DNA from: Terriglobia bacterium
GTDB taxonomy: Bacteria > Acidobacteriota > Terriglobia > 20CM-2-55-15
Direction: 5' to 3'
NCBI GenBank assembly: GCA_965262675.1
Contig: OZ253554.1
Coordinates: 3,220,640-3,284,639, forward strand
DNA length: 64,000 nt
Of this stretch, positions 10,948 to 37,306 are shown piece after piece. The notes under the pieces are model-generated. The model was given only the letters and a program-made list of their open reading frames with translations, had not been told where the DNA came from and made no database searches. The position numbers were made by a program, and so were the translations under genes. How positions within the stretch are numbered: the stretch's first letter is position 1; the number at the start of each line of letters is the position of its first letter.

Positions 10948-11109
10948 CCGGGCCTCCGACCGGCTGAATGTTTCTTCCACCGCAGTGGACGGACCGGCCA
11001 GAACGGATGGTACAAGTGGCCGTTGAAGAGGTCAAGGAAAAGGCTGAAATACGTCCCTCCTGAACATCTTGGAGAGCCAATCCGATGCAACGTCTCTTGA
11101 CACCCGCTC

Positions 11110-11139
11110 TTGACACCCGCGAACAACCGTACCCATAAT
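11110..11139 (+). promoter_or_regulatory. Sigma70-like promoter for the family A gene at 11181, with a duplicated -35 element
   Basis: TTGACA (11110), 18-nt spacer, CATAAT (11134). The 13-bp segment tcttgacacccgc is tandemly duplicated, giving a second TTGACA at 11097. Confidence 0.4.
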
Positions 11140-11180
11140 CGGGGCCACTATCGATCGCCACACCAGACAAGGGGTTCCCA

Positions 11181-16235: not shown

Positions 16236-18443
16236 TCAGAACCGGAACGTGTACTGCAGCTTTGCCGTTACTCCGCGGTCCGCCATATCGAATCGCATTC
16301 GCCCGTCCGGCTGCTGTTCCCGGATCCATCCCTGATTGAAGACGAAAAACAGATCGCGGCCCGGATCCAGGATCCACTGGACGCGGCTCTGCCATCCCAG
16401 ATTGTTCGAGTCGTTGTCGAACTGGATCAGGTTGAAGAAAGTCAGAAATGGCGTTACCGAATAGTCGGCCCGCAGAGTGAAGATCCGGGCGGCGAAGTTG
16501 CCTTCAGGGAGACGTGCGAATGTCAGATTGTAGGACGCGGCGGCATCGAGGTTCGGGGCCAGTTTGTACTGGAACTGACCGGACAACTCGTTGGCCCGGC
16601 CCGACCAATACGATCCGAACCACCAGGTGGCGCCCACTTTCCAGGGACGATTGTCCGACGAAGAGAACTCGACGCGGTACCGGTCGAAACGGTAGTCGCC
16701 CGGCTGCAGTTCGATGCCGTCCGATATTTCGAACGGTTCGAAGAGTCGTTCGGACTGGCCCCGCCAATTCAACTCGAACCGGTCGCCGGAGTTCCACGTC
16801 CAGTTCAGCGGTGCGGTGAAGAACTGCCAACTTTCGACCTGGCCGGTGTCTATCCGCGTATGCCGTGTGAACGCGAACTGGTGCAGCATCTGGCGAATTC
16901 CGAAGAAATCGCCGGGGCGTGGAGCGAATTCAACGGTGAAATCCAGACGCGTGGTGTCGGGACGTTGAACGAACCCCATTGCCGGATCGAAATTCTTCTC
17001 GGCACGAAGCCAGGCGCCTTCCAGCGACCAGAGGTCGTTGGGATAGGCCACCGCCACCCGGTATGCGCCGGAATCTCCCGATATCCCCTCGTTGCGGACG
17101 CCCACCGCGAACGCCTGGATGTTGAAGTTGCGCCCGGTACCCAGAAAGTTCGATGTTCCCAAGAGCAGGTCGCCTCCGTAGGTGTGCGCCGAACGGCCGG
17201 TTTCCGAGCTTCCTTCCGTGTAGATCATTCCCACATAGGACTGGTTCAGGATGTTCCGCTTGACGCGCGCCGCCAGGTAGTTCTGCGCGTCGGTAAATCC
17301 GGTTTCCCGAGTGCGTGCGTCCAGAATGCCCACGTCGAAACGACCGGCCTTGCCGGCAAGTTTGACGCCGGCGAGGATCGGGACCTCCCGACCGCCGAGC
17401 AGGCCGATCTTTCGACTGAAAAAGGGCAGCAGGGTCGGTCCGAAGCCACCGCTGACACCAAAATCGAACACGCCGGCATTCTCAAGGAAGAACGATCGTT
17501 TCTCCGGGAAAAACAGGGGAAAGCGGTCCAGATTGATCTGGCGATCGTCCACCTCGGTCTCCGCGAAGTCGGTGTTGAGCGTGGTCGTCAACCGGAGGCT
17601 GGGCGTGATGTTGTAGAAGAAGTCCCCGCCGACGTCACCTTCCCGCAGGTTGTTTTCGTCAAAGCGAGAGTCGATCCATCGGCCCGAAACGAACGGACGC
17701 ACATCCAGTCCTCGCCCCTCGTCGATTCCGGTCAGGCCCTCCATGTCGCCGGCCTCGGAAACCTGAACGAAATCCGCGTCCAGACGGGCTCCGGACCAAC
17801 GATCTTCCTCGCGTTTTCGGCCGATCGTGCGGGAGACGTTGAAGCCCCATGCCTGTAGTCCCTGCGAAAAACTCAGGCTCTTGAACGGGATGGCGAACTC
17901 GGCCGTCCATCCATCGTCGTTCTGCCGGATGCGGACGTTCCAGATCGCGTTCCAGTCACTGTTGATTTCGCCATTCTCGATGATCAGGCCGTCGACCAGG
18001 GCACCGGCCGGATTTGTCGAAAAGTAGAAGGCGTTGCGCCGGTCCCTGAATGTGTCCAACAGGACTTCGATCCGATCGTCGACCGAGAGGTCGGCATCGC
18101 GGGACATCTGGGTCGCAACGATCCCTCCGGGGTCGGAGTCGAAACAGACGATGCCAATATAGAGTGTCGCGCTGTCATACAGGACGCGGACCTCGGTGCG
18201 CTCGGTTGGCGCAGCGCCTTCCACGGGCTCGCGCTGCAGGAACTCTCCGATCGGCGCGGTAGATTGCCAGTCCGATTCCGACAGGTCCCCGTCCAGAGTG
18301 ATCGGCGACATCGTCCGGACCGCGATTCCGCGCCGCGCTCCGCCGGTTTGACCGCCGGGTTCGGCGCCCCAGGCGGGCTCCAGACCGAGAATCAGGATAA
18401 CGATGGTTTGGATGAGAATCGTGACTCGGAATGTGGTTTTCAT
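16236..18443 (-). CDS. Secreted CBM9-like/DUF5916 family protein (large beta-rich outer-membrane-associated protein)
   Basis: Signal peptide, N-terminal carbohydrate-binding-family-9-like segment (ITLDGDLSESDWQS...VLYDSATLYIGIVCFD), then a long Tyr/Gly/Asp-rich beta region. Family call is from memory. Confidence 0.7.
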   Translation of the reverse strand: MKTTFRVTILIQTIVILILGLEPAWGAEPGGQTGGARRGIAVRTMSPITLDGDLSESDWQSTAPIGEFLQREPVEGAAPTERTEVRVLYDSATLYIGIVCFDSDPGGIVATQMSRDADLSVDDRIEVLLDTFRDRRNAFYFSTNPAGALVDGLIIENGEINSDWNAIWNVRIRQNDDGWTAEFAIPFKSLSFSQGLQAWGFNVSRTIGRKREEDRWSGARLDADFVQVSEAGDMEGLTGIDEGRGLDVRPFVSGRWIDSRFDENNLREGDVGGDFFYNITPSLRLTTTLNTDFAETEVDDRQINLDRFPLFFPEKRSFFLENAGVFDFGVSGGFGPTLLPFFSRKIGLLGGREVPILAGVKLAGKAGRFDVGILDARTRETGFTDAQNYLAARVKRNILNQSYVGMIYTEGSSETGRSAHTYGGDLLLGTSNFLGTGRNFNIQAFAVGVRNEGISGDSGAYRVAVAYPNDLWSLEGAWLRAEKNFDPAMGFVQRPDTTRLDFTVEFAPRPGDFFGIRQMLHQFAFTRHTRIDTGQVESWQFFTAPLNWTWNSGDRFELNWRGQSERLFEPFEISDGIELQPGDYRFDRYRVEFSSSDNRPWKVGATWWFGSYWSGRANELSGQFQYKLAPNLDAAASYNLTFARLPEGNFAARIFTLRADYSVTPFLTFFNLIQFDNDSNNLGWQSRVQWILDPGRDLFFVFNQGWIREQQPDGRMRFDMADRGVTAKLQYTFRF

Positions 18444-18475
18444 TTCTTCTGGTGTCGTTTCCGCGGGTATCGATC

Positions 18476-19102
18476 TTACAGGTGTCGATCCAAAGCGGCC
18501 GTGGCATCCGCCTTGCGCAGTTCCCGGAGGACGTTCCTGCTCCTGGCACGAATGCCTGGACTCTCCTCCCTGCCCGTTGCTTCCAACGTCAATCGCAACT
18601 CGCGGCGCAGTTCGGCGTAGGGGAGGGCGATGTTGCGGGCGGTGAATATCGCATGCGCGCGAACAGCGATAGGCTGCCGTGGGGACGCGGTGATTTCGAT
18701 GGCGGCGTCGAAGACCTCACCGGCAATATCGTCATCGATCTCGATGAATGAAAGCGCGCGCCACAACTCGCGCCGCATGCTCGCATTCTCGCAGTCCACG
18801 AGCATTTGCCAGATCAGGCGTTGCGCTCGGGCGCCGTCGGGCCGGTTGCGTTCGACGAAACGAGAGAACATCCACGTCATGTACCACTTCACTGGGAGCT
18901 TCCGGCGGCGCATCTCGTCGAAAAACGCTTCGAAGTCTATCCCTTTGCGCGCCATGAGACCGGCCCAACGCGCGACGTTCGGCGTCGTGCGGTCCGAAGC
19001 CAGCGAGTCGGCCAATTCCCGAGGCGAGAGCGGCGAATGGGAACCAGCGGCCGTCAACGCTTGCGAAGCCTTGACGACGGGTCCGGATCTTTCGGCATTC
19101 AT
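18476..19102 (-). CDS. DNA alkylation repair enzyme-like (HEAT-repeat, AlkD-like) protein
   Basis: Helical repeat protein resembling the AlkD/AlkC family. Start ambiguous: internal ATG (MNAERSG) chosen over the TTG at 19165. Confidence 0.45.
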   Translation of the reverse strand: MNAERSGPVVKASQALTAAGSHSPLSPRELADSLASDRTTPNVARWAGLMARKGIDFEAFFDEMRRRKLPVKWYMTWMFSRFVERNRPDGARAQRLIWQMLVDCENASMRRELWRALSFIEIDDDIAGEVFDAAIEITASPRQPIAVRAHAIFTARNIALPYAELRRELRLTLEATGREESPGIRARSRNVLRELRKADATAALDRHL

Positions 19103-19335
19103 GACACCAAAAACTCGGTAATGTCTCGGTTCGAATGCCGTCAGAGACAAACTCCACAATCTCAAACCTGGACACTACGAACAGTTCTTTTTCCTATGCA
19201 GTAGCCCTCAGCTAAAATACCATGCTTGGAAGCTTTGGAACGGGTTGCATAGTTCTCTTGATAAACGACTTCGCCCACGGGGAATTGCTCGTGATCGAGT
19301 GCTTGGGAACGCTCAACGTTAAGGAAGGGTGGTCG

Positions 19336-20997
19336 ATGATTCGTAGTCTGCAATTTGCTGTTGTGCTCCTGTCGGTGGCTGTATTGGGCGGCACGATCGT
19401 CCGGGCTGCGCAGAATAGTGCCGTGGCCGACGCTGCACAGGCGGGCGATCTCATTGGTCTCGGCAACCTCATCGCGTCGAACGCGGATGTGAACGCACCA
19501 TCGGGCGACGGATCCTCTCCGCTGCTTTGGGCGGCCTACAGGTTCGACGTCGAGATGGCCGAGGTTCTCATCGCTGCCGGCGCCGATCTGAACCTTGCCA
19601 ATAACTACGGGATCACGCCTCTTCTCCAGGCGGCTCGGACCGGCGACGCGGCGATGACCGAAGTCCTGCTCCAGGCCGGCGCCAATCCCAATCTCGCCCA
19701 CACCGAGGGCGAAACACCCTTGATGGCCGCATCGCGCGCGGGCAGTGTTGCCGCCGTGCGCCTGCTGATCGACAACGGCGCCATCGTGAATGCTGTGGAT
19801 ACGTTTCAGAACCAGACCGCGCTGATGTGGGCCTCGGTGGAAGGGCAACTCGATGTCGTGGATGTGCTGCTTTCCGAAGGCGCCAATCCCAATCATCGGG
19901 CTCGGGTATCGTCGATCGCCTCACGCAGAAACGCGGATCATCCGACAGGGGGCTTCACGGCCCTGATGTGGGCTGCAAGAAACGGCGAGGAAGATACCGC
20001 GCGGCGGTTGGTCGAAGGGGGAGCGGACCTCAACCTCAAGAACGGCGACGGCGCTTCAGCTACCATGATCGCCATCTACAATGACCGCTTCGATACGGCG
20101 GGGACACTGATCGACCTAGGCGCCGACGTCAATGACGGATCGCTGTACACCGCAGTCGAGATGCGTCGGTCGACGACAGACCAGTTTGCTTTCGACGGCT
20201 CGCGCCTGCGCCCGAATCACGAGAACAGGCTAATGGCTCTGAATCTGATCGCCACCTTGCTCGAGCGCGGCGCCGACCCGCACCAGTGGTTTCAGGGCCA
20301 GTTTCATTCGACGTCGATGCCCAACGGCGACCGATTCGCCAATTCGCCGTTTTTCCGCGCGGCGGTTTCCGCAGACGTCGAAACACTGAAGGTCTTTCTT
20401 CCCTATGTATCCGATATCGATCAGGCGCTGGTTGTCCCGGAGGTTGAAGACGACGGTGGGAGCGGCGGTCCGGGCGGCCGCGGCCGGGCCAATCCCAACG
20501 CCGGCCGGACTGCGGCCATGGCGGCTATGACCGGAGGTCGCGCTCCGGCAATGACGGGTGGTCCGGGATACATCCGATCCGGCGAGGCGCCCTATCGCGA
20601 ACCGGGGAGCCGGAAGCCCGAAGACGCGTTTGCCCTGTTGCTCGACGCCGGTGCGAACCCCGATGCCAAAGCGCCGGATGGTTCGACGTTGCTGCACCAA
20701 GCCGTCCGGTCTCGCAATCTCGACATCATTCGGGCGCTCGGCGATGCCGGCGTCGACTACAACCAGGCCGACGATGACAGCTTGACGGCACTCGACGTTG
20801 CCGAAGGCAGACGACCCGAGGGCGAGGAAGACCCTGGCGCCGGCCCGGCTGGCGGGGGCGGCGGTCGCGGGGGTCCCCCTCCTCCTGAAGTCGCGGCGCT
20901 GCTGCGTGAACTGATGGGCTTGCCGCCGGCGCCCGAACCGCCAGCGGTTATCGAAGATGAAGACGCACCTTTGACGCCGGCCGGAGACGCTCAATGA
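19336..20997 (+). CDS. Secreted ankyrin-repeat protein
   Basis: Signal peptide, then at least 8 ankyrin repeats (G.TPL..AA..G......LL..GA..N motifs). C-terminal Gly/Pro-rich tail. AAGGAAG Shine-Dalgarno 9 nt upstream. The stop overlaps the next gene (ATGA). Confidence 0.8.
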   Translation: MIRSLQFAVVLLSVAVLGGTIVRAAQNSAVADAAQAGDLIGLGNLIASNADVNAPSGDGSSPLLWAAYRFDVEMAEVLIAAGADLNLANNYGITPLLQAARTGDAAMTEVLLQAGANPNLAHTEGETPLMAASRAGSVAAVRLLIDNGAIVNAVDTFQNQTALMWASVEGQLDVVDVLLSEGANPNHRARVSSIASRRNADHPTGGFTALMWAARNGEEDTARRLVEGGADLNLKNGDGASATMIAIYNDRFDTAGTLIDLGADVNDGSLYTAVEMRRSTTDQFAFDGSRLRPNHENRLMALNLIATLLERGADPHQWFQGQFHSTSMPNGDRFANSPFFRAAVSADVETLKVFLPYVSDIDQALVVPEVEDDGGSGGPGGRGRANPNAGRTAAMAAMTGGRAPAMTGGPGYIRSGEAPYREPGSRKPEDAFALLLDAGANPDAKAPDGSTLLHQAVRSRNLDIIRALGDAGVDYNQADDDSLTALDVAEGRRPEGEEDPGAGPAGGGGGRGGPPPPEVAALLRELMGLPPAPEPPAVIEDEDAPLTPAGDAQ

Positions 20998-23423
20998 AGA
21001 GGATGCTTCTCCAAACGGCGGCGCTGATCCTCGTCCTCGCCGGCCTTCCGGCCCTCAGCGAAGCCCGGCAATCGCTGGCGGACTACCAGGGGTTGGTTGA
21101 TCAATACTGTGTCACCTGCCATAACCAGCAGACGCGCATACCCGCAGGGGCGCCGCTCGCGCTGGACACGGTAAACCTTCAAGACCCCAGTGCGGATGCC
21201 GGGATTTGGGAGAAAGTCGTTCGCAAGCTCGGCCTGGGCGCGATGCCTCCACAGGGTGCGCCGACACCTGGTCCGGACGAATTGACGGCGTTCCGATCGA
21301 CATTGATCGCCAGCCTCGACGACGCCGCGGCGCAAACGGACAGCCCGGGACGCTACGTCCTGCACCGTCTGAATCGCAGCGAATACGGCAACGCCGTCCG
21401 CGACCTGTTGGGTGTCGAAGTGGATGTCAGCGAACTCCTCCCGAGCGATGGCGGCGACTTCGGGTTCGACAACATCGCATCGGCGCTCACGATTACCCCG
21501 ATCCTTCTCGAGGGATACCTCTCGGCCGCGTTGCGCATTGCCGATCTTGCGATCGGCGATGTCGAGGCCGAACCGGGCACGTCGACCTATTCGATCAGCA
21601 CGATCGTCACACAGAGGGAGCACGTGGAAGGACTGCCGCTCGGGACGCGAGGCGGCATTGCGGTGACCCATACGTTCCCGGCCGACGGCGAGTACGTGTT
21701 CTATGGACGGCTCCTGCGCACGGTTGCGGAAGGCTACGTCGGGGTCGAGGGCCATGAATCGCCGTTTGACTTCATCGTGACGGTCGATGGCGAGCAGGTG
21801 TTTTCGGCGCCGGTCGGCGGGAGAGAAGACCACGAGTCCAGTTCGGAAAACATCACAGTATCGAAAGATGAAATCGACGAGCGCATGACCTCGCCGCCGA
21901 TCCCGGTTACGGCGGGTCCGCACAAGATCGGATTCACGTTCATCGATCGGCCCACTCAGGAACAGAACGTGTGGAAACCGGTGCTGCGCGAGAGCCTGGA
22001 AGCACACAACCCCTCGGGCATTCCGAGGTTGCGAGCCGGAAACGTCGAAGGACCTTACAACGTCACGGGCATCGGCGACACGCCGACGCGCCGGCGCCTG
22101 TTTACGTGTCAGCCGGCATCGGCGGCCGACGAAGCCCCGTGCGCTGCTGAAATATTGTCCAATGTGGCAAGACGCGCCTTCCGGCGGCCCGTCGACGCCC
22201 CGGACATACAGGCGCCGATTGCCTTCTACGACGCTGCTCGATCCGAAGGTGGCGACTTCGACGCCGGAATCCGCGCGGGTCTGGTTCGGATCCTGGCCAG
22301 TCCGTCATTCGTATTTCGTGCGGAAGAAGACCCGGCGAACCTTCCGCCCGGCGCCGCGCATCGCATCACCGATATCGAACTGGCTTCACGCCTGTCGTTC
22401 TTCCTCTGGAGCAGCATTCCCGACGATGAGTTGCTGGATCTGGCCATCGCTGGCCGATTGAGTGAGCCGGACGTTCTGGAGGCTCAGGTCGGGCGAATGA
22501 TCGCCGATGGCCGGGCCGACGCAATGATCACCGAGTTCGTCGGACAGTGGCTCCAACTCCGCAACATCGACAAGGTAACGCCCGATCTTCTGATGTTCCC
22601 GGACTTCGACGACAACGTCCGGCAGGCGTTCCGCCGCGAAACCGAACTGTTCTTCACGAGCATCGTTCGCCAGAATCGAAGCGCGCTGGAGCTTCTGGAT
22701 GCCGACTATACGTACCTTAACGAACGGCTCGCACGGCACTACGGCATCCGGGGCGTCCTTGGTTCCCAGTTCCGCCGGGTGCGGGTGGAAGATCCGAATC
22801 GGCGGGGCCTGTTGGGCCATGGCAGTGTCCTTACGCTGACCTCGGCCGCGAATCGGACCTCGCCCATCATCCGCGGGAAGTATGTGATTTCGAATCTTCT
22901 GAACACGCCGCCGCTGCCGCCGCCGGCCAACGTGCCGTTGCTGGAGGAGAGCGCGCCGGCGGACCGGCCTTCAACGGTCCGTGAACAACTGGAACTGCAT
23001 CGTGCGAATCCGGCATGCGCGGCTTGCCATCGCAATATCGACCCCGTCGGATTTGCGCTGGAGAACTTCAATGCGGTGGGCCAGTGGCAGGATACGACTC
23101 GAGAGGGGCTGGAGATCGATTCCGCGGGAGTTCTGGTCGACGGTACGTCGGTCGACGGTCCCCTGGAACTGAGGAACGCACTCCTCGCCAGACCCGAGGT
23201 GTTCGTTGGCACGGTCACCGAAAAGTTGATGACCTACGCCTTGGGGCGGGGACTCGAACCCATCGATCTGCCCGTGGTACGCCGCATCATGAACGACGCC
23301 GCGACAGATGATTACGCCATGCAATCGATAATTCTGGGGATCGTCCGAAGTTCCGCCTTTCAGATGCGTACCAAGTTGACGGATACTGTTCCAATCAATC
23401 GACAGACAGCAGAGAGGGATTAG
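20994..23423 (+). CDS. DUF1587/DUF1592/DUF1595/DUF1588/DUF1585 multidomain protein with N-terminal CxxCH (PSD1-like)
   Basis: Signal peptide and a CVTCHN heme-binding motif. The classic partner of DUF1552 proteins in Planctomycetes, Acidobacteria and Verrucomicrobia. Confidence 0.85.
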   Translation: MKRMLLQTAALILVLAGLPALSEARQSLADYQGLVDQYCVTCHNQQTRIPAGAPLALDTVNLQDPSADAGIWEKVVRKLGLGAMPPQGAPTPGPDELTAFRSTLIASLDDAAAQTDSPGRYVLHRLNRSEYGNAVRDLLGVEVDVSELLPSDGGDFGFDNIASALTITPILLEGYLSAALRIADLAIGDVEAEPGTSTYSISTIVTQREHVEGLPLGTRGGIAVTHTFPADGEYVFYGRLLRTVAEGYVGVEGHESPFDFIVTVDGEQVFSAPVGGREDHESSSENITVSKDEIDERMTSPPIPVTAGPHKIGFTFIDRPTQEQNVWKPVLRESLEAHNPSGIPRLRAGNVEGPYNVTGIGDTPTRRRLFTCQPASAADEAPCAAEILSNVARRAFRRPVDAPDIQAPIAFYDAARSEGGDFDAGIRAGLVRILASPSFVFRAEEDPANLPPGAAHRITDIELASRLSFFLWSSIPDDELLDLAIAGRLSEPDVLEAQVGRMIADGRADAMITEFVGQWLQLRNIDKVTPDLLMFPDFDDNVRQAFRRETELFFTSIVRQNRSALELLDADYTYLNERLARHYGIRGVLGSQFRRVRVEDPNRRGLLGHGSVLTLTSAANRTSPIIRGKYVISNLLNTPPLPPPANVPLLEESAPADRPSTVREQLELHRANPACAACHRNIDPVGFALENFNAVGQWQDTTREGLEIDSAGVLVDGTSVDGPLELRNALLARPEVFVGTVTEKLMTYALGRGLEPIDLPVVRRIMNDAATDDYAMQSIILGIVRSSAFQMRTKLTDTVPINRQTAERD

Positions 23424-23426
23424 CCC

Positions 23427-24755
23427 ATGATCATTACAAAGAAGCATCTGCCTCGCCGGTCGTTCCTGCGGGGGGCCTTGGGGACGATGGTGGCGTTGCC
23501 GTTTCTGGACGCCATGGTTCCGGCCTTGTCGGCCCAGACCACGGCGCGGCCGTTCCGATTCGGCGCGATTTACGTGCCGAACGGAATCTACCCGCAATTG
23601 TGGCATCCGGACACGACGGGAAGCGACTTCGAATTCAAGTCGATCATGGCGCCGCTCGAGCCGTACCGCGACTACTTGGTCACGCTCAGTCAGATGAAGG
23701 CTCCGGACGGGAATCCGGAGATGGGTGGTGTGCACATGGGTGCCAGCGCGGCATGGCTGAACGGCGTCGGTCCACTCACCGGCCAGGCAAACTATACCGT
23801 CATCCAATCCAAGAAGACCATCGACCAGTTCATCGCCGACGGGATCGCCGGAGACACTCCCCTGCGGTCCCTCCAGGTGGGAACCGAGGACATGGGAACT
23901 TCCGCGGGCGCCTGCGACGGCTTTCCCTGCGTCTTCTTCAACACCGTTTCATGGCGCGACGACACCAGTCCGCTGCCCATGGGTATCAACCCGCGTGTGA
24001 CTTTCGAACGCATGTTTGGAGAAACCGGTTCGGCGCGTAAACGGCTTTCGAACCTCAAGCTGAAGCAGAGCGTGCTGGATTCGATCGCCGAGGAAGCGGC
24101 CAATATGCAGCGAAGGCTGGGGGCCGCCGATAACGCCATTCTCGATGAGTACCTGACGAACGTTCGCGATGTCGAACAGCAACTTGACCGCATGGAAACC
24201 CGCTCCGACGCCGTTCCCGAGGGCACGTCCGCTCCGACGGGGATCCCCGATACCTTCGACGAACACATGACGGTAACCTACGACCTGATGCGCTTGGCGT
24301 TCCAGGGCGACATCTCACGCGTGTTCACGTTCATGGTCGGTCACGAGGGAAGCAGTCGGAGTTATTCCCACATCGGAATTCCCGAGCCGCACCATCCGGT
24401 ATCGCACCACGCGGACAACCCCGAAAACATCGAGCGGTACGCGAAGGTCACCACCTACCATTCCGTCAAGCTCGCCGAGTTCATCGGCAAGCTCCAGGCG
24501 ACCCCAGACGGCGATGGGACGCTCCTGGACCGATCGGTCATCTACTATGGCAGCGGCATGAGCAACGGCAATGCCCACGACCGCAACAATGCCCCGGTCC
24601 TCCTGATGGGCGGTGCGAATGGCCGGTTGAAGGGCAATCGCCACATCGCCGTGGAAAACAAGGAACCGACAGCCAATCTTCTGCTCGGCATCGCCGATCT
24701 GGCCAATGTTGAGGTCGAACAGATCGGCCACAGCACCGGCCGGCTTGTCCTTTAG
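23427..24755 (+). CDS. DUF1552 family protein with Tat signal
   Basis: RRSFLRGALGTMVALPF Tat motif. Conserved DUF1552 segments such as FGAIYVPNG and HHPVSHH. Confidence 0.85.
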   Translation: MIITKKHLPRRSFLRGALGTMVALPFLDAMVPALSAQTTARPFRFGAIYVPNGIYPQLWHPDTTGSDFEFKSIMAPLEPYRDYLVTLSQMKAPDGNPEMGGVHMGASAAWLNGVGPLTGQANYTVIQSKKTIDQFIADGIAGDTPLRSLQVGTEDMGTSAGACDGFPCVFFNTVSWRDDTSPLPMGINPRVTFERMFGETGSARKRLSNLKLKQSVLDSIAEEAANMQRRLGAADNAILDEYLTNVRDVEQQLDRMETRSDAVPEGTSAPTGIPDTFDEHMTVTYDLMRLAFQGDISRVFTFMVGHEGSSRSYSHIGIPEPHHPVSHHADNPENIERYAKVTTYHSVKLAEFIGKLQATPDGDGTLLDRSVIYYGSGMSNGNAHDRNNAPVLLMGGANGRLKGNRHIAVENKEPTANLLLGIADLANVEVEQIGHSTGRLVL

Positions 24756-24995: not shown

Positions 24996-25838
24996 ATGAG
25001 ATCCATCGTTTCAAAGTTCCCGAAGACATCGGGGTGTGCCACGGCCGCCATCGTCCTGATTGCCGCGGCCTGCGTCTGGACCGAAGAGGCCACCGCGAGG
25101 CAGACCGGCGATGCCGCCGGTGCAACGATTCCACGAACCGCGGATGGACGTCCGGACTTTCAGGGCATCTGGCAGGTTCGGAACCGGGCCTCGTACAACC
25201 TGGAAGATCACGCCGCGGGGTACGGCATGCCTCCCGGCCGGAGCGTGGTCGATGGCGGGCGAATTCCCTACCAGGCGGCCGCGGTCGAACAAAGGGACGC
25301 GAACTTCAGAGACCGGGAAACCGCCGATCCGCTTTCAAAGTGCTACATGCCAGGCGTTCCGCGGATCATGTACATGGAGCATCCCTTTCAGATTTTTCAA
25401 ACCCCCGACCACATTGCGATGACTTTCGAATGGTCGCTGGTCCACCGACTGATCTACACCGATGGGGAACCGCAACGATATTCCGGACTGGAGTTCTGGA
25501 TGGGGGATTCGCGCGGCCGCTGGGAAGGCGACACGCTGGTCGTTGACGTGACCGGCCACAACAACCGCACATGGTTCGACATGTCCGGCAACTTTCACAG
25601 TGAGGCGATGCGACTGGTTGAGCGGTATACGATGCTCGACCCGGACACCATCGAATACGAGGCGACGATCGAGGATCCCCAGGTGTTCACCCAGCCATGG
25701 ACGATCCGTATGCCGATCTATCGGCACAAGGACATGGACCGGGTCCTCGAGTATCATTGCCAGGCCGAAGTCGAAGAGGCGAACGGGGCGTTCGAACGCG
25801 ATGAACGCACCTGGTATCCTGGGCGGTCGGAGCCATGA
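24996..25838 (+). CDS. Secreted protein, paralog family A
   Basis: PDFQGIWQ, CYMPGVPR, WEGDTLVVDVTGHN and EYHCQAE motifs. Track ORF trimmed to ATG 24996, which has a GGAG Shine-Dalgarno. Confidence 0.75.
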   Translation: MRSIVSKFPKTSGCATAAIVLIAAACVWTEEATARQTGDAAGATIPRTADGRPDFQGIWQVRNRASYNLEDHAAGYGMPPGRSVVDGGRIPYQAAAVEQRDANFRDRETADPLSKCYMPGVPRIMYMEHPFQIFQTPDHIAMTFEWSLVHRLIYTDGEPQRYSGLEFWMGDSRGRWEGDTLVVDVTGHNNRTWFDMSGNFHSEAMRLVERYTMLDPDTIEYEATIEDPQVFTQPWTIRMPIYRHKDMDRVLEYHCQAEVEEANGAFERDERTWYPGRSEP

Positions 25839-26767
25839 GTCACATTCCGAACGCCCCTTCGAGCACCCTTTTCAATCGAGCAATCCGAATGAACCACCCG
25901 AGAAATCCGATGAAACGACGGCGCAATTTCCTGCTTCGAGCCGTTCTGGCGGCAGCGATAACGACACCCCTGGCGATGGCGCCGCAATCCTATGCGGCCC
26001 AGGGACGTGGGAGTGCGGATTCGGCGCCGTCCGGACCCATTCGCCGACTGCCGGATGGCACGCCCGACATTTCGGGCCTCTACCAAGCCGACGGAGGAGG
26101 CGCAAACTACGGACTCGAACAGAAACCCCGGGACTTTCTGACTCCGGCGTCAAGAGGCGTGGTTGTCGATCCGCCCGATGGCATACTGCCGTACCAGGAA
26201 TGGGCGCGAGCGGAACGGATCGACCGCTATCTTCCTCACCGTGGATATGACGATCCGACGGCACATTGTTTCGTGGCCGCAGGCGTCCCACGTTCCCATT
26301 ACGTACCGTCCCCGTTCCAGATACTGCTGCCTCCCGGATATGTCGTTATTCTGTTCGAGCGGATGGCCTGGCGCCAGATTCCCCTTGACGGGCGGGATCA
26401 CATTCCGGAAGACATCCGGCTATGGAACGGCGACTCCGTGGGCCGATGGGAAGGCGATACGCTGGTCGTCGAGACCACGAACATGAACGGCAAGACATGG
26501 CTGAACGAAGTCGGAGACGTGGTCAGTCACGCGCAGACCACCGTCGAACGGTTCACGCCTCTGGATGCCGATACCATCACATACCAGGCCACGGTGACCG
26601 ATCCCATCGCCTACACGGCGCCGTGGACGATGGAAATACCATTGAACCGCAGGGACGACGAAATCCTCGAGGTCGCGTGTCTCGAAGACAATCAGGATCT
26701 GGAACATCTCAAGGATGTCCGCGACGCATGGCGGGCGGAACAAGGACAAGGAGAGACTGGACGATGA
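25835..26767 (+). CDS. Secreted protein, paralog family A (Tat-like RRRNFLLRA signal)
   Basis: PDISGLYQ, CFVAAGVPRS, WEGDTLVVETTNMN and EVACLEDN motifs. Start ambiguous (25835, 25889 or 25910). The stops overlap the neighbouring genes. Confidence 0.7.
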   Translation: MSHIPNAPSSTLFNRAIRMNHPRNPMKRRRNFLLRAVLAAAITTPLAMAPQSYAAQGRGSADSAPSGPIRRLPDGTPDISGLYQADGGGANYGLEQKPRDFLTPASRGVVVDPPDGILPYQEWARAERIDRYLPHRGYDDPTAHCFVAAGVPRSHYVPSPFQILLPPGYVVILFERMAWRQIPLDGRDHIPEDIRLWNGDSVGRWEGDTLVVETTNMNGKTWLNEVGDVVSHAQTTVERFTPLDADTITYQATVTDPIAYTAPWTMEIPLNRRDDEILEVACLEDNQDLEHLKDVRDAWRAEQGQGETGR

Positions 26768-27186
26768 GGGTTAATTTCAGCAGAACGATACGCGCGCTCG
26801 CCACGATTGCGTTCGCCGTGGGCGTGTTTGCCGTTTCGGCCGGCGCACATCACGCCTTCACCGCGGAGTTCGACCCGAACAGCCCGATCGAGGTCACTGG
26901 CAAGGTGACGGATATGTTGTGGTCCAATCCACATGCCTGGATCTATATCGATGTCGAAGGACCCGATGGCGAGGTCGTCAACTGGTCATTCGAGTCGGGT
27001 TCGGCGAACGGGTTGATCCGGCGCGGATGGCGGAAAGAAGACCTGATCTTCGGCACCGAACTTGTGATCACGGGCTGGCAGGTACGCAGTGGAGGACCCT
27101 CCGGGAACGCCAGCAGCATCACTCTTCCGGACGGGCGCCGACTGTTTGCCGGCACGTCCAACCCCGACGCTCAGGAGAACGAGTAA
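26764..27186 (+). CDS. Small secreted protein, paralog family B (mature N-terminus HHAFTAEFD)
   Basis: Signal ...VSAGA, then HHAFTAEFD; WSNPHAWIY; DGRRLFAGTS. ATGA overlap with the upstream family A gene. Confidence 0.75.
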   Translation: MRVNFSRTIRALATIAFAVGVFAVSAGAHHAFTAEFDPNSPIEVTGKVTDMLWSNPHAWIYIDVEGPDGEVVNWSFESGSANGLIRRGWRKEDLIFGTELVITGWQVRSGGPSGNASSITLPDGRRLFAGTSNPDAQENE

Positions 27187-30752: not shown

Positions 30753-32735
30753 TCAGGGAAGCGCCATCGCCGTCAGCGTGCTTCCGGTTTGAAGCATCAC
30801 ATACTGTTTGCCATCGTAAACGTACGTCATCATACCGTAACGACTGCCGGCCGGAACATCCACCGTACCCACGCGCTCTCCCGTCGCCTTGTCGACCGCA
30901 TAGAGGCGTGGGGAACCGTCGCCCGCGGCGCCGGCATAGATCAGCAACGTTTCGGTCACGGTCATCGGCGCGACGTTGCCCGAGCCCGTGTTCGGGATGT
31001 CCATTCCCTGTAAGTCGGGATGATTCGCGACGCGGTCGGGCGTATCGCCGACCGGAATCCACCAGAGGTGATCCCCGGTGTTCATGTCGATTGCCGTGAT
31101 CCGGCTGTAGGGTGGCTTGTACAGAGGCAAACCGTCGGGTCCGCGAGCCGCCGCGCTTCCCCCCACCGCGAAATCGGCGATCGTCGTGCCGGTGGGTGCG
31201 TCCTCGCGTGCATCGCGCTCGGCGCCTGGGACAATGATCCGCGAGGTGCATGCCTTGCGCGAGGTCACGTACAGGATTCCCGTTGCGGGATCGGCGGCCG
31301 CCGGCCCGTCGATGTTCACGCCGCCGACATCTCCGGGACACCAGAGCGCCCCGCGCTTGTCGAGGTCGTTATCCCGATGAAGCGGGGGATTGAACAAGGG
31401 GCCGATCTGGAACGGCTCGAGCGCTTGGAGCGCCCGCTCCCTCAACTCGGGAGTGAAATCGATCAGGTCGTCGACCGTGAGCCCTTGCATATCGTACGGC
31501 GCCGGGCGGGTCGGGAAAGGCTGGGTCGGGGACAGTTGTTCGCTTGGAACGAGCGATGCCGGGACCGGGCGCTCCTCGATCGGCCAGAGGGGCTCCCCGG
31601 TCTCGCGGTGGAACGCGTACGCGAAGGCCTGCTTCGTCACCTGCACGACGGCGGGAACCTCTTCCCCGTCGACGGTCACGTCGAGCAGCACGGGCGCCGT
31701 CGGTGTGTCGTAATTCCAGATGTCGTGATGCACGAGTTGGTAGTGCCAGGCTCGCTCTCCGGTCTGCACGTCCAGTGCGATCAGGCTGGTGCTGAACAGG
31801 TTGTCCCCGGGCCGGAACCCCCCGTAGAAGTCGATCGTGGCCCCGTTGGTCGGAATGTAGACGATGCCCCGCTCCGGGTCCGCCGCCATCGGCGCCCATG
31901 ACGACACGTCGCCGGTCCATTCCCATGCGTCGTTTTCCCACGTTTCGTGACCGAACTCGCCGGGGCGGGGAATGACGTTGAACTTCCACAGGAATTCTCC
32001 CGTCCGGGCGTCGTAGGCCAGAATGTCTCCCGGAATATTCTCGATGCGCGACTGGTTGTAGCCTTGTTCCGCCGAATTGCCCACGATCACGACATCGTTG
32101 ATGACGATGGGCGGGGACGACGCGGTGATGTAGCCGACTTCCAGCGGGATACCGTCATAGACATCGTACTCGTGGCCCAGATCGGCGAGCAGGTCGACCG
32201 AGCCGGTCGGCCCGAACCCGTCAATCGGAACGGACCCGCCGAAGCCTTCCAGAGGCTGGCCCGTCCCGGCGTCCAGGGCATGGAGGAAGAACGCCGGTGT
32301 CGTGATGTACACGACGCCGCGGCCGTCGATCTCCGCGTATGCGACGCCCTTTCCGTAGTCCTGCCGCATGGAGTATTCCCACCGGCCGGTGTTGGGCTCG
32401 CGGAACGACCAGAGCGTCTCTCCGCTTGCGGCATCGAGTGCGACGACGTGGCGGCGTGGACCGGCGACCGTATACAGCTTGCCGTCGGCGTAGACCGGGG
32501 TCGAGCGCCCGCTGGCGGCGTCAAAGCTGGCGCCGTCCCAGACCCATGCTTCCTGAAGGTTCTCGAAGTTGGAAGCGTCAATCTGGTCGGCCGGAGAGTA
32601 TCGCGTGTGCCGGGCATCGCCTCCGACGAAGCGCCACTGGCCGTCTTCGGTCCCGGTCTGCGCTCCGAGCAGGGCGGGGGTCCACAGGATGCCGGCGGCA
32701 ATGAGCGCCGTTGCGTATCGTCCGGGTAGGATCAT
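30753..32735 (-). CDS. PQQ-dependent dehydrogenase (quinoprotein), secreted
   Basis: Signal peptide MILPGRYATALIAAGILWTPALLGAQ. PQQ propeller repeats (for example AxDxxTGExLW ...). Trimmed from 33308 to ATG 32735, which has an AAGGAGAG Shine-Dalgarno. Confidence 0.85.
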   Translation of the reverse strand: MILPGRYATALIAAGILWTPALLGAQTGTEDGQWRFVGGDARHTRYSPADQIDASNFENLQEAWVWDGASFDAASGRSTPVYADGKLYTVAGPRRHVVALDAASGETLWSFREPNTGRWEYSMRQDYGKGVAYAEIDGRGVVYITTPAFFLHALDAGTGQPLEGFGGSVPIDGFGPTGSVDLLADLGHEYDVYDGIPLEVGYITASSPPIVINDVVIVGNSAEQGYNQSRIENIPGDILAYDARTGEFLWKFNVIPRPGEFGHETWENDAWEWTGDVSSWAPMAADPERGIVYIPTNGATIDFYGGFRPGDNLFSTSLIALDVQTGERAWHYQLVHHDIWNYDTPTAPVLLDVTVDGEEVPAVVQVTKQAFAYAFHRETGEPLWPIEERPVPASLVPSEQLSPTQPFPTRPAPYDMQGLTVDDLIDFTPELRERALQALEPFQIGPLFNPPLHRDNDLDKRGALWCPGDVGGVNIDGPAAADPATGILYVTSRKACTSRIIVPGAERDAREDAPTGTTIADFAVGGSAAARGPDGLPLYKPPYSRITAIDMNTGDHLWWIPVGDTPDRVANHPDLQGMDIPNTGSGNVAPMTVTETLLIYAGAAGDGSPRLYAVDKATGERVGTVDVPAGSRYGMMTYVYDGKQYVMLQTGSTLTAMALP

Positions 32736-33115
32736 GGCTGGGTCTCTCCTTATCGGGCGGCGCCGTTGGCCGCCACGCTTCCGCATTGTCACCGGGATCG
32801 GCTCGGTTGTCGACAAGGATCGTCCGGTCGGGCGCTCACAGGGCGTGGACGACACGGGCGCGATATTTTCGACCCGCCCTGACTCGTCGGCATGACATTC
32901 CAGACAAATGTCGCCGAAGTCATTCACGTCGTCGCAGGTACAGTCCTGGTACATCCGAGGGCCGCGATTCGCGCTTACGTTGGATGCGCAGAGCAGTTCT
33001 ACGGGCAGCTGGGCGACGCTGATGCCAACTGCAAACCGAAGGAACAGAGCCGACGTTGTCGCCGCTGATGTGGCGGTTTCCTCAAACAGATCGATTCGGC
33101 GCCGAAGCCATCTTC

Positions 33116-33146
33116 TTGACTGTATGGCCGTTGCCAACCTATATAT
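33116..33146 (+). promoter_or_regulatory. Sigma70-like promoter for the family A gene at 33205
   Basis: TTGACT (33116), 18-nt spacer, TATATA (33140), in a 470-bp divergent intergenic region. Confidence 0.35.
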
Positions 33147-33204
33147 GAACCTGCGAATCGCCGGGTACCGAGTCGACGTATCGAGCCAAGGGGAGATCGA
33201 CCAC

Positions 33205-34035
33205 ATGAAAGACGGGTTGCGTGGTGGAATCATGGTCCTGGCCGTGGCGGCGGCGATCGTCTCGATAGGGGTGGGAACCACAGCCGCACAGTCGGCGGGC
33301 TCGGACATTCAACGTGCCTGGGACGGCAACCCCGATCTGAACGGGATCTGGCAGGCAATCGGTACCGCACATTGGGACATCCAGGATCATGCGGCCGCCG
33401 CGGGGCTGCCCGAAATGGGAGCGATCGGTGCGATTCCTCCGGGCCAGGGCGTAGTGGACGGCAACGAAATCCCGTATCGGGAATGGGCTCTCGAACAAAG
33501 GCGACAGAATTTCGAGAACCGCTTCACCGAGGATCCCGAGATCAAGTGCTACATGCCGGGCGTCCCACGCTCGACCTATCTCCCGTATCCATTCCAGATC
33601 GTCCAGGGAACCGGCAAGATGATGATGGTCTACGGGTTTGCCGAAACCAATCGCACCATTCACATGGACAAGGAAAACCCTGAGCCCGCGCCTATCGACA
33701 GTTGGATGGGGCGGTCCCACGGGCAATGGGAAGGCGACACGCTCGTCGTGGATGTCGCCGGTTTCAATGGGCAGTCGTGGTTCGACCGGGCAGGTAACTT
33801 TGCCAGCAGCACGTTGCACGTGGTCGAGCGGTATACCCCGATGGGCGCCAATGCAATCATGTACGAGGCCGTCATCGAAGATCCGAACGTGTTCACACGC
33901 CCATGGACCATGCGGATGCCCCTGTATCGACGTCTGGAAGACAACATCCAGATCCTGGAATTCAAGTGCGTCGAATTCTCCGAAGAACTTCTTTATGGCC
34001 ATCTGCGCCGGCAATCGCCAGACCGAGACCAGTAA
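33205..34035 (+). CDS. Secreted protein, paralog family A
   Basis: PDLNGIWQ, CYMPGVPRS, WEGDTLVVDVAGFN and EFKCVEFS motifs. AAGGGGAG Shine-Dalgarno. Confidence 0.75.
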   Translation: MKDGLRGGIMVLAVAAAIVSIGVGTTAAQSAGSDIQRAWDGNPDLNGIWQAIGTAHWDIQDHAAAAGLPEMGAIGAIPPGQGVVDGNEIPYREWALEQRRQNFENRFTEDPEIKCYMPGVPRSTYLPYPFQIVQGTGKMMMVYGFAETNRTIHMDKENPEPAPIDSWMGRSHGQWEGDTLVVDVAGFNGQSWFDRAGNFASSTLHVVERYTPMGANAIMYEAVIEDPNVFTRPWTMRMPLYRRLEDNIQILEFKCVEFSEELLYGHLRRQSPDRDQ

Positions 34036-34050
34036 CGAGGTAAACACGCC

Positions 34051-35790
34051 ATGAAAGCGAAACGTGCAGTCCATATGCTCCTTATCGGAATCGCGTTGGC
34101 CGCCGCCGTGTCAGGCGTGGCCCGCGCAGCCGATTATCATCATGTCCACCTCGCGGTCCCGAGCCCGACCGAAGCGGTCGCATGGTATGAGCGGTACATG
34201 GAGTGTGAGGCGATTCCGGAACGCACGGACGCCGTCTCGTGCGGCGGTGTGGAGATCCATTTCGATGTCCTCATCACGGTGGGCGGGAGCCAGGGCACCG
34301 GCGTGAACCATATCGGCTTCTCGTTCGCGGATCTGACAGGCAAGATGACGGAACTCGAAGGAGTGGGCGTCGGGGGCCGGGGCGTGCGACTCCAACGGTT
34401 CGACGACGGCTCGACTCTGAGCGACGTACCGGGACTGTTCACTCACGGCTTTGTGTTCGATCCGTGGGGGACGCGCATCGAACTCGTGGAGGACCCGAAT
34501 TATCTCGGGTTCCATCATGTCCACCTGAGTTCCACCGACCCGGAAGCGAGCCTGGACTGGTATCGGGAGAATCTGGGGGGCGAGAGAGCCCGCCTCAACG
34601 GACAACTCGACGGACTGTTGTTCGACAACGTGTGGCTCATCGTTTCGGCCCACCCCGAGGGTACGCCCCCGCCGGCGCCTACCGTGGGCCGGGCAATCGA
34701 TCACATCGGTTTTCTCGTATCCGACCTGGACGAGGCAGCGGCCGACATGAGTGAACGCGGGGTTGCGCTCGAGGGCACGGAGACTGGCCGGACATCGGCG
34801 AGACGGGCCTTCATTGCGGGTCCGGACAACGTGGCTCTCGCGGTTGTGGAGCCGGGATGGGAGGGGGTCGTTGCAAATTCTCTGGCAGCGGACATCGGCG
34901 CCGTTCCACTTGGAGAACCGTACACGGTGCCCAGAACGCCGTGGGGCACCCCGGATCTGCAGGGCGTCTGGACTTCGAACCGGGCACACGGCATTCCTCT
35001 CGAACGCCCCCTGGACCTGGCGGACATCGAGGAACTGACTCCCGAAGAAGCCGCCGCGCGCCGCGAACGGGGAACGCTGGGAAGCATTTGGGGTTACGAA
35101 CGGGAATGGCGCGATACGACACTGGGGTTGGTCGGTTCGTCGCCGTCGACCCAGGTGGCCATGGTGGTCGACCCGCCCGACGGACGCGTCCCCCCGCTGA
35201 CGCCGGAAGCCCAGGCGCGGACCGGCGGGGGACGCGGAGGCCGAGGCGGCCTGCCGGCGGGGCCCGAAGACCTGAGCAATTACGTGCGGTGCATCACGCG
35301 GGGTCTGCCCAGCCTGATGATGCCGGGCATCTACAACAACGGCCTGCAGATCGTGCAAAGCCCCGGTCATGTCGCGATTCAGAAGGAGATGATCCACGAA
35401 ACCCGGATCGTTCCAACCGACCCGAAACCGTATCTGGGAGAGAACCTGACCCAGTGGCTCGGCGATTCGCGCGGCCGCTGGGAAGGCGACACGCTGGTGG
35501 TCGAGGTGACCAACTTCAATGGAAGGGCCGTATACCGGAATTCCAGCACGGCGATGAAACTGACCGAGCGTTTCACGCGCATCGGTCCCGAGACGCTGAT
35601 GTACGAATTTACCATCGACGATCCGTCCACGTGGACTCGGCCATGGACCGCGATGTTCACGTTCGAGAAGGACGACGACCAGTATGAACTGGTCGAATAC
35701 GCCTGCCATGAAGGCAACTACGGAATGACAAACATCCTGAACGGCGCCCGCGCGCAGGAATTGGCCGCCGACGAAGACACCGGGAGATAA
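34051..35790 (+). CDS. Fusion protein: two VOC (glyoxalase/dioxygenase-like) domains plus a C-terminal family A domain
   Basis: The N-terminal half has two HVHLAV/HVHLSS ... HIGFSF/HIGFLV VOC-type repeats. The C-terminal half carries PDLQGVW, CITRGLPS, WEGDTLVVEVTNFN and EYACHEGN motifs. Confidence 0.75.
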   Translation: MKAKRAVHMLLIGIALAAAVSGVARAADYHHVHLAVPSPTEAVAWYERYMECEAIPERTDAVSCGGVEIHFDVLITVGGSQGTGVNHIGFSFADLTGKMTELEGVGVGGRGVRLQRFDDGSTLSDVPGLFTHGFVFDPWGTRIELVEDPNYLGFHHVHLSSTDPEASLDWYRENLGGERARLNGQLDGLLFDNVWLIVSAHPEGTPPPAPTVGRAIDHIGFLVSDLDEAAADMSERGVALEGTETGRTSARRAFIAGPDNVALAVVEPGWEGVVANSLAADIGAVPLGEPYTVPRTPWGTPDLQGVWTSNRAHGIPLERPLDLADIEELTPEEAAARRERGTLGSIWGYEREWRDTTLGLVGSSPSTQVAMVVDPPDGRVPPLTPEAQARTGGGRGGRGGLPAGPEDLSNYVRCITRGLPSLMMPGIYNNGLQIVQSPGHVAIQKEMIHETRIVPTDPKPYLGENLTQWLGDSRGRWEGDTLVVEVTNFNGRAVYRNSSTAMKLTERFTRIGPETLMYEFTIDDPSTWTRPWTAMFTFEKDDDQYELVEYACHEGNYGMTNILNGARAQELAADEDTGR

Positions 35791-35795
35791 GACCC

Positions 35796-36221
35796 ATGCG
35801 AACGACTCTTGCCGTCATTCTGGCCTCTGCTCTCATCCTTACGGGCACCGCCCCGTTGATGGCGCACCATGCGTTTTCCGCGGAGTTCGATTCCACCAAG
35901 CCTGTCCGAATACGTGGCAAGATCACGCGCATGGAATGGATCAATCCCCATGCCTGGATGCACCTCGACGTGACACAGGATGACGGCACGGTAGAAAGCT
36001 GGATGATCGAGGCCGGCCCCCCGGGCGCGCTTGTCCGCAGGGGATGGAACAGGGATTCGGTGGTTGTCGGCACGGAGGTGCTGGTGGAAGGCTATCGGGC
36101 TCTGGACGGGTCGAACCGGGCCAACGGCCGCGATGTGACGTTCCCGGACGGCCGCCGGTTGTTCGCGGGATCCTCCGGCACGGGCGCGCCAATCGATGGG
36201 ACCGACCCCACCGAGCGGTAG
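35796..36221 (+). CDS. Small secreted protein, paralog family B (mature N-terminus HHAFSAEFD)
   Basis: Signal ...APLMA, then HHAFSAEFD; WINPHAWMH; DGRRLFAGSS. Confidence 0.75.
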   Translation: MRTTLAVILASALILTGTAPLMAHHAFSAEFDSTKPVRIRGKITRMEWINPHAWMHLDVTQDDGTVESWMIEAGPPGALVRRGWNRDSVVVGTEVLVEGYRALDGSNRANGRDVTFPDGRRLFAGSSGTGAPIDGTDPTER

Positions 36222-36319: not shown

Positions 36320-36508
36320 ATGATTCGGAAAGTCATTCACAAGACCCGCCTGCAGGACAGCCAATCGCTGCAACGAGATCTGGACTATTGGCTCAGCCGT
36401 TCCCCCAAGGAACGAATCGACGCCGTCGGGCGCTTACGAAAGCAGGCCCATGGATCTGGAATCCGACTTCAAAGAACTGCTCGAGTTATTCAACGCCCGG
36501 AGCGTTGA
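36320..36508 (+). CDS. Small ORF of unknown function overlapping the start of the next gene
   Basis: 62-aa ORF whose last ~59 nt overlap the NTase-fold gene start in another frame. Coding status uncertain. Confidence 0.2.
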   Translation: MIRKVIHKTRLQDSQSLQRDLDYWLSRSPKERIDAVGRLRKQAHGSGIRLQRTARVIQRPER

Positions 36509-36896
36509 ATTCCTCATCGTCGGCGCCTACGCGCTGGCTCAACACGGCATTCCAAGGTATACCGGCGATCTGGATATCCTCGTCCGGCCCAGCGCGGACA
36601 ATGCCGTGCGAGTGATGGAGGCGCTAAAGGCATTCGGATTCGGAGAGATCGGCTTGGCCCGCCAAGACTTCGAAAAGGCCGGCAACGTCATTCAGCTTGG
36701 TGTGCCACCGGTCCGTATCGACATTGTCACCTCGATTTCCGGTGTTTCATGGGAAGAGGCCGATGGCGAACGGATTGAAGGGCGCTACGGAGACATCGCG
36801 GTCGGCTTCCTGGGCCGGGAACAAATCATCGCAAACAAGCGCGCTTCGGGACGAAAAAAGGACCTCGCCGACCTGGAAGCTCTGGGAGAAGAATAG
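36450..36896 (+). CDS. Minimal nucleotidyltransferase-fold protein
   Basis: GAYALAQHGIPRYTGDLDILV matches the hG[GS]...D.D signature of the nucleotidyltransferase fold. 148 aa. Confidence 0.5.
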   Translation: MDLESDFKELLELFNARSVEFLIVGAYALAQHGIPRYTGDLDILVRPSADNAVRVMEALKAFGFGEIGLARQDFEKAGNVIQLGVPPVRIDIVTSISGVSWEEADGERIEGRYGDIAVGFLGREQIIANKRASGRKKDLADLEALGEE

Positions 36897-37306
36897 TGAC
36901 CGTGAATCCTCATCTTGTTTTCAGCGGTCAGTGCGAAGAGGCGTTCAAATTCTATGAACGCTGTCTTGACGCCAAGATCAAGTTCACCCTTACCTGGGGC
37001 GACTCGCCCCTTGCAAACCAGGTACCGCCGGAATGGGGCGGCAAGGTCCTGCATGCGACTCTGTGGGTCGGCGACACGGTGTTGACGGGAGTGGATGTTG
37101 TTCCCGAGGAGTACGAACCGCCGAGGGGCTTCTCCGTAATGCTTGGCCTCGACGATCCGGTAGCCGCGGAACGTATCTTTGACGTGCTGGCGGAAAATGG
37201 AACGGTGGGAATGCCGCTACAAGAGACTTTCTGGGCCGCACGTTTCGGGGGAGTTGTGGATCGGTTCGGGATACCCTGGGAGATAAACTGCGAAGCAGCG
37301 ACCTGA
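36896..37306 (+). CDS. VOC-family protein (PhnB-like glyoxalase/bleomycin-resistance fold)
   Basis: 136 aa with LHATLWVGDTVLTGVD and MLGLDDPVAAERIFDVLAENG segments typical of PhnB-like VOC proteins. GTG start overlaps the upstream stop. Confidence 0.7.
   Translation: MTVNPHLVFSGQCEEAFKFYERCLDAKIKFTLTWGDSPLANQVPPEWGGKVLHATLWVGDTVLTGVDVVPEEYEPPRGFSVMLGLDDPVAAERIFDVLAENGTVGMPLQETFWAARFGGVVDRFGIPWEINCEAAT

Follow-up and report, generated by a model that had tools for sequence, protein, structure and literature searches.

Introduction

The closest described relatives of the protein reported here are two-domain metalloproteins of the VOC (vicinal oxygen chelate) superfamily: the Bacillus cereus protein 1zsw, a glyoxalase-family metalloprotein; human GLOD4 (3zi1/9csj); PcpA (4huz), a 2,6-dichloro-p-hydroquinone 1,2-dioxygenase; 3oaj, a putative dioxygenase of Bacillus subtilis; and the two-domain glyoxalase I of maize (6bnz). 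Type I extradiol dioxygenases such as BphC and catechol 2,3-dioxygenase also contain two VOC domains, with a 2-His-1-carboxylate set in the second, and enzymes of the FosA/FosB type are single-domain VOC proteins. Here, we describe a gene at positions 34051-35790 (+ strand) of a 64,000-nucleotide stretch of Terriglobia bacterium DNA (contig OZ253554.1; the window, to which coordinates refer unless stated), in which two VOC domains are fused to a module of a second family, called family A.

The fusion resembles the two-domain VOC metalloproteins in having tandem VOC domains in one chain, with candidate His/Glu ligands at the canonical strand positions. However, it is only 14-16% identical to them, carries a predicted signal peptide and a conserved disulfide-type cysteine pair, retains a candidate metal set in both domains, and alone has a C-terminal domain of 290 residues. 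Proteins of the FosA/FosB type gave the best sequence matches in the PDB, at an E value of only ~1e-3, and two histidines of the second VOC domain fall on FosA ligands; FosA-type enzymes are cytoplasmic homodimers, whereas the fusion is a predicted-exported tandem. Likeness to the type I extradiol dioxygenases is limited by a poor whole-chain Foldseek alignment (root-mean-square deviation 18-19 Å) and by the ligands that the first domain of the fusion also keeps. The C-terminal half is a bona fide relative of the standalone and tandem family A proteins, annotated as 'hypothetical protein', and shares with them a gene order that includes DUF6152 (PF19649); the VOC head is carried by the fusion and not by those proteins. 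We found no description of this fusion architecture in the literature, and the gene is already present in databases under a generic VOC name.

Results and Discussion

A continuous and widely distributed VOC-family A fusion

The open reading frame (ORF) at 34051-35790 encodes 579 residues without interruption, and its GC content at third codon positions (0.75) and codon bias are typical of the window. The protein begins with a predicted Sec signal peptide, continues through two complete VOC domains and a short linker, and ends in a full family A module. The signal peptide (34051-34128; residues 1-26, MKAKRAVHMLLIGIALAAAVSGVARA), read from the sequence, has a predicted cleavage site after ARA, followed by ADYHH; its sequence varies among orthologues and its presence is kept. 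VOC domain 1 (34129-34503; residues 27-151) contains HHVHL at residues 30-34 and NHIGF at residues 86-90, and VOC domain 2 (34504-34860; residues 152-270) contains HHVHL at residues 155-159 and DHIGF at residues 217-221. A linker (34861-34917; residues 271-289), for which the orthologues show no consensus and the structural model has a predicted local distance difference test (pLDDT) score below 50, leads to the family A module (34918-35790; residues 290-579 and the stop codon), with PDLQGVW at residues 301-307, WEGDTLVVEVTNFN at residues 477-490 and EYACHEGN at residues 549-556. An initial annotation, made from the sequence, had read the gene as a fusion of this kind, and the motifs on which it relied are all found where it placed them. 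The protein has exactly four cysteines, C52 and C64 in VOC domain 1 and C414 and C552 in the family A module, all of which are invariant among 216 orthologues and fit disulfides in an exported protein. Together with the signal peptide, they suggest that the protein is probably exported through the Sec pathway to the periplasm.

The same annotation had proposed a search for this architecture elsewhere and had asked whether the fusion might be an artefact. We identified 216 distinct full-length orthologues with the same architecture, at 59-97% identity. More than 120 full-length clusters (557-591 residues, 64-97% identical over 92-100% of the query) were recovered in a search of 5.8 billion clustered proteins; they derive from ENA, JGI, NCBI and Logan assemblies and carry no annotation more specific than 'VOC family protein' or 'catechol 2,3-dioxygenase-like lactoylglutathione lyase family enzyme'. 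When one genome was scanned for each species, the fusion proved to be encoded by at least 253 species-level genomes, from the phyla Acidobacteriota and Gammaproteobacteria. Eighty species loci from the 253 encoding genomes were kept for neighbourhood counts; they belong to Vicinamibacterales, Bryobacterales, Thermoanaerobaculia, Terriglobia and the gammaproteobacterial Ca. Rariloculaceae, and many lie on closed long-read chromosomes. The copy in a Terriglobia metagenome-assembled genome (MAG) is 94% identical to that of the window.

An artefact of assembly, frameshift or gene calling that joined two adjacent genes might be suspected from the variable linker, with its low model confidence, and from a copy in a low-quality MAG (L057:2796-4263) whose VOC and family A parts appear as separate ORFs in different frames. 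However, independent assemblies, closed long-read chromosomes among them, yield this ORF uninterrupted in 216 distinct sequences, and conservation is equal on both sides of the VOC/family A junction. An artefact is thus excluded for practical purposes, and we regard this explanation as vanishingly improbable. The split copy, which probably reflects a frameshift rather than a natural unfused state, was the sole candidate for an unfused double-VOC gene beside family A among 86 loci.

Both VOC units are complete domains

The two HVHL...HIGF units had been described as VOC half-domains, but each proved to be a whole VOC domain with its own candidate metal site. Domain 2 was recognised by the Pfam Glyoxalase profile (PF00903; residues 154-263, 48.4 bits against a cut-off of 20.6). 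Domain 1 is too divergent for Pfam and is 24% identical to domain 2 (pairwise E value 2e-7), and the pair is thus the product of an internal duplication. AlphaFold2, run with a 127-sequence alignment, predicted pairs of beta-alpha-beta-beta-beta units at residues 28-147 and 153-267 with pLDDT scores of 77-91 (77-90 for domain 1). Foldseek aligned ~290 columns (about 270-296) of the model to two-domain VOC structures with E values of 5e-11 to 1e-8 and target TM scores of 0.53-0.60, and gave a probability of 1.00 to many VOC structures. The N-terminal region is therefore predicted to fold as VOC, in line with the initial annotation, and its fold, profile match and ligand positions place the VOC half in the VOC superfamily as a new and divergent member.

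Conservation among the 216 orthologues points to candidate metal ligands in both domains. In domain 1 these are H31 (88%), E68 (89%), H87 (99.5%) and E147 (99.5%), a His/Glu/His/Glu pattern that resembles glyoxalase I. In domain 2 they are H156 (98%), H218 (99.5%) and E267 (98.6%), with a neighbouring histidine, H155, that is invariant (100%) and another, H158, kept in 94%. Alignment to the FosA profile placed H156 on FosA H7 and H218 on FosA H64, and the conserved E267 stands where the third ligand usually lies, which suggests a three-ligand site. Each VOC domain would thus probably carry its own metal site of the His/His/Glu type. Besides these near-invariant sets, many second-shell Arg and Asp residues are invariant; invariant arginines in the VOC half are R113, R116, R142, R214, R247 and R252. 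Domain 1 also contains a Gly/Arg-rich insertion of 30 residues (GVGVGGRGVRLQRFDDGST...; residues 105-133, 34363-34449), which is almost invariant among the orthologues, is modelled with low AlphaFold2 confidence and might serve as a lid or as part of an interface.

No characterised VOC subfamily was matched by the VOC half, and its best sequence relatives in the PDB scored ~20 bits. NCBIfam models for catechol 2,3-dioxygenase (TIGR03211; 16.9 bits against a cut-off of 320.2), glyoxalase I (TIGR00068; 22.9 against 120), FosA (NF000094; 13.7 against 275) and methylmalonyl-CoA epimerase (TIGR03081; 13.4 against 115) all scored far below their cut-offs. A PROSITE-type pattern for the extradiol signature around the C-terminal Glu ligand found no match, nor did a relaxed form of it. 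The ring cleavage or isomerisation of small substrates that the initial annotation had proposed for the VOC half does not gain support from these results.

Family A is a large family with a predicted beta core

The C-terminal 290 residues of the fusion are 32-34% identical (tblastn E values 2e-16 to 6e-31) to four other modules of the window, at 11181-11942, ~24996-25838, 25835-26767 and 33205-34035, which upholds the assignment of this region to family A. A profile of the five modules matched 20,646 representatives of clusters at 50% identity with E values up to 1e-3, and 11,773 with E values up to 1e-10. Members are mostly 240-330 residues long with a signal peptide, and share motifs in the order R..G.PD..G.W, Cys, W.G.S.G.WEGDTLVV, ER, Y, DP..T.PW and E..C over ~250 residues, all of which are present in the fusion. 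A hidden Markov model (HMM) of 117 diverse members scored 246.5 bits with the fusion and 386 bits with the gene at 33205-34035. No relative of family A was found in Pfam (scanned with the 117 members), in NCBIfam, or among PDB sequences with either a single sequence or the 117-sequence profile.

In a first AlphaFold2 run, with an alignment of 49 orthologues only, the family A half had pLDDT scores below 50. With 78 standalone family A sequences added, the beta core was recovered, but residues 310-430 and the domain interface were not. The core (residues 430-541) consists of eight consecutive antiparallel strands at residues 432-540 with pLDDT scores of 85-92, and the N-terminal PDLQGVW strand is additional to this eight-strand meander. 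In a mean-field coevolution analysis of 605 sequences (effective number 234), neighbouring strands were linked by hairpin ladders that match the model; the analysis also gave contacts of W298 and Q304 to the sheet, the pair C414-C552, and one contact between the first and last strands (431-536, strand 1 to strand 8). A calycin/lipocalin-like fold, in which eight up-and-down strands close into a barrel and a G-x-W strand lies at the N-terminus, is a candidate for the core, which might hold a ligand.

An insertion at residues ~310-400 of the fusion is absent from the alpha-type modules described below and is seen in standalone relatives (for example, L087_1541_2509). A low-complexity stretch, TGGGRGGRGG (35227-35256; residues ~393-402), lies in this insertion, in a segment that is variable among orthologues. 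Invariant arginines in the family A half are R337, R338, R340, R351 and R354. We also considered a heme c site at ACH (C552-H553), and rejected it because the histidine is not conserved in paralogues and C552 covaries with C414.

The fusion occupies the second slot of a conserved cassette

Three closely spaced genes form an operon with the fusion in the middle. Upstream lies a standalone family A gene (33205-34035, +; 276 residues, with its own signal peptide), separated from the fusion by 15 nucleotides with a GAGG ribosome-binding site before the fusion ATG. Downstream, after a gap of 5 nucleotides and a ribosome-binding site GGGAGA, is a DUF6152 gene (35796-36221, +; 141 residues, PF19649 E value 1.6e-32), with the predicted mature start HHAFSAEFD. 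A second cassette of the same plan occupies 24996-27186 (+), with family A genes at ~24996-25838 and 25835-26767, which overlap by 4 nucleotides, and a DUF6152 gene at 26764-27186. This last gene (140 residues, +) overlaps the stop codon of the preceding family A gene by 4 nucleotides, and was missed by a simple longest-ORF call because a longer out-of-context ORF starts at 26422. A third, reduced cassette (10552-11942) has DUF6152 (10552-10980, -) divergent from a family A gene (11181-11942, +).

Modules of the first slot, which we call alpha, are 48% identical between the genes at 33205 and 24831; those of the second slot, called beta and including the family A domain of the fusion, are more divergent. 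The closest beta-type relatives of this domain share TPWG.PDL...EYACHEGN. Among the 80 loci, the gene immediately upstream of the fusion belongs to family A in 54 and the one immediately downstream encodes DUF6152 in 45; both are present in 40. The plan family A/family A/DUF6152 was also found at unrelated loci (L001-L006, L013, L025, L051 and L087).

Family A modules also occur in other fusions, where the partner is another family A module or cytochrome c rather than VOC domains. Tandem proteins of ~520-560 residues (P0121-P0140, P0241) join 24831-type and 25835-type modules in the same order, with ~70% identity in each half. In P0249 (L087:6001-8420; 330 residues), a class I cytochrome c domain stands ahead of an alpha module; this fusion has 7 members, on contigs of up to 5.9 Mb. 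At L087 a PQQ (pyrroloquinoline quinone) dehydrogenase gene is followed divergently by a CMD-like gene, cytochrome c-alpha, beta and DUF6152, and a separate cytochrome c gene lies nearby. The tandem alpha-beta proteins, and the occurrence of cytochrome c-alpha with beta and DUF6152, support a physical alpha/beta pair.

DUF6152 was examined in the three copies of the window and at loci L001-L086. In 73 ORFs (66 distinct), the signal peptide ends in a small residue, usually Ala, directly before His-His, so that the mature protein would start HH(A/S)F..EFD. Invariant positions in the 66 distinct sequences are H1, H2, E7, D9 and W-x-N-P-H29-x-W, and there is no cysteine. An N-terminal histidine right after the cleavage site is a hallmark of histidine-brace metal sites, and on these sequence features DUF6152 is a probable metal-binding protein. 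A literature search returned no papers that mention DUF6152 or Rariloculus. The small periplasmic protein of a 2026 preprint on lanthanide PQQ enzymes was considered as a possible DUF6152 protein; this was ruled out, since that protein is without a conserved domain.

A model for the fusion and its alternatives

The reading we favour, with somewhat better than even confidence, is that the fusion is an exported double-VOC head on a beta-type family A subunit that pairs with alpha in a complex that contains or serves DUF6152. Family A proteins would normally act as an alpha/beta pair encoded beside the small DUF6152 protein, and in this lineage the beta subunit would have gained a VOC head. The family A domain may dock the fusion to its alpha partner (33205-34035) and to DUF6152 (35796-36221), and possibly also holds a ligand in its beta-barrel, while the VOC head would perform a metal-assisted reaction by chelating a small substrate, which is probably anionic given the many invariant arginines. 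Export, metal binding, formation of the complex and catalysis are the parts of this model that we infer.

Several observations weigh against it. H31 of domain 1 is replaced in 12% of the orthologues (by Tyr in 6%), and the site may therefore be degenerate in some of them. The AlphaFold2 model of the fusion has a predicted TM score of 0.50, with low confidence in the linker, and does not define the interdomain geometry. The VOC superfamily also includes non-catalytic binders. Finally, at 21 of the 80 loci, which form a Vicinamibacterales subclade, neither family A nor DUF6152 adjoins the fusion, which instead has an ankyrin-repeat gene and a PhnB-like VOC gene in its vicinity; either the complex is not obligatory or the partners are encoded elsewhere.

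The initial annotation had taken the fusion as a Rosetta stone that links family A to VOC chemistry. Read in this way, family A as a whole would take part in such chemistry (cleavage of aromatic rings, or isomerisation), within a periplasmic pathway supplied by the PQQ dehydrogenases nearby. That the fusion is real is in keeping with this, as are the presence of the ring-cleaving PcpA and an MhqO-like protein among the best structural matches, the 2-His-1-carboxylate set in domain 2, and the PQQ dehydrogenases that flank both full cassettes of the window and also occur at L001-L003, L007, L046 and L087. However, the link to VOC domains, although genuine, is limited to one sub-branch, a VOC head being found on only one of the 150 best among the 20,646 family A matches, and a PQQ dehydrogenase lies within 10 kb of the fusion at only 17 of the 80 loci, so that the fit with quinoprotein dehydrogenases is a local one and the Rosetta-stone idea is only partly supported. 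With the extradiol profile score and signature also against it, and the nearest flanking genes heterogeneous, we consider this explanation unlikely. A non-enzymatic head, acting on the family A complex either as a binding or sequestering module, like the bleomycin-resistance proteins, or as a periplasmic metal buffer, would agree with the existence of such binders in the superfamily, with the failure to match any catalytic subfamily, with the variation of H31, and with the presence in the cassette of a probable metal-binding protein with an invariant N-terminal His-His. Near-invariant His/His/Glu residues in both domains, alongside invariant Arg and Asp residues in the second shell, would rather be expected of an active site, and a purely binding role appears quite unlikely to us.

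A broader proposal, which we judge very unlikely as a whole, is that alpha, beta and DUF6152 form an unrecognised periplasmic metallo-redox machine. In such a machine a histidine-brace-like arrangement of His1-His2, E7, D9 and H29 would hold the metal of DUF6152, electrons might come from cytochrome c (fused to alpha in some genomes) or from neighbouring PQQ dehydrogenases, and the double VOC head on the beta subunit could perform, in this lineage, a follow-up metal-dependent step on the product.

The locus bears on two families, family A (20,646 clusters at 50% identity) and DUF6152, that are common in Acidobacteriota and in marine or sponge-associated Gammaproteobacteria. The fixed gene order and the three independent fusions, with a VOC head, with cytochrome c and of alpha to beta, provide the first testable handle on family A, suggest metal or redox chemistry in a periplasmic complex, and offer an entry point into both uncharacterised families. 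For VOC enzymology, a predicted-exported protein with two intact candidate metal sites and disulfide-type cysteine pairs is unusual.

Wider neighbourhood

Divergent from the cassette, at 30753-33308 (-), is a PQQ dehydrogenase gene (PF01011, E value 1e-171), which is part of the local context rather than a conserved partner. Its ORF encodes 851 residues from the first ATG, and since the Pfam match begins only at residue 225, translation probably starts much further into the ORF, near MILPGRYATALIAAG. Where the catalytic Asp would be expected, the sequence is HHDIWNYD.

When the two genes closest to the fusion on each side were sorted by Pfam family, no recurrent pathway emerged; the most frequent families were short-chain dehydrogenases upstream (11 of 124 genes) and McrBC downstream (10 of 130), and a conserved catabolic neighbourhood was rejected on account of this heterogeneity. 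A block of four genes (16236-24755) precedes the second cassette of the window and encodes a DUF5916/CBM9-like protein, an ankyrin-repeat protein, a PSCyt/PSD protein (DUF1585/1587/1588/1592/1595 with a cytochrome c domain) and a DUF1552 protein with HXXSHH and a Tat-type leader. The same block recurs beside the VOC-family A fusion in several Vicinamibacterales genomes (L004-L006, L024, L035 and L047).

Downstream of the fusion cassette, at 36450-37306 (+), a gene of 148 residues without a Pfam match is followed, with overlapping stop and start codons, by a PhnB-like VOC gene (PF06983/PF00903). In L001 and L007, the two closest genomes, the cassette is likewise followed by the 148-residue gene, and in L001 by the PhnB-like gene as well. 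PhnB-like VOC genes were found near the fusion at 19 of the 80 loci.

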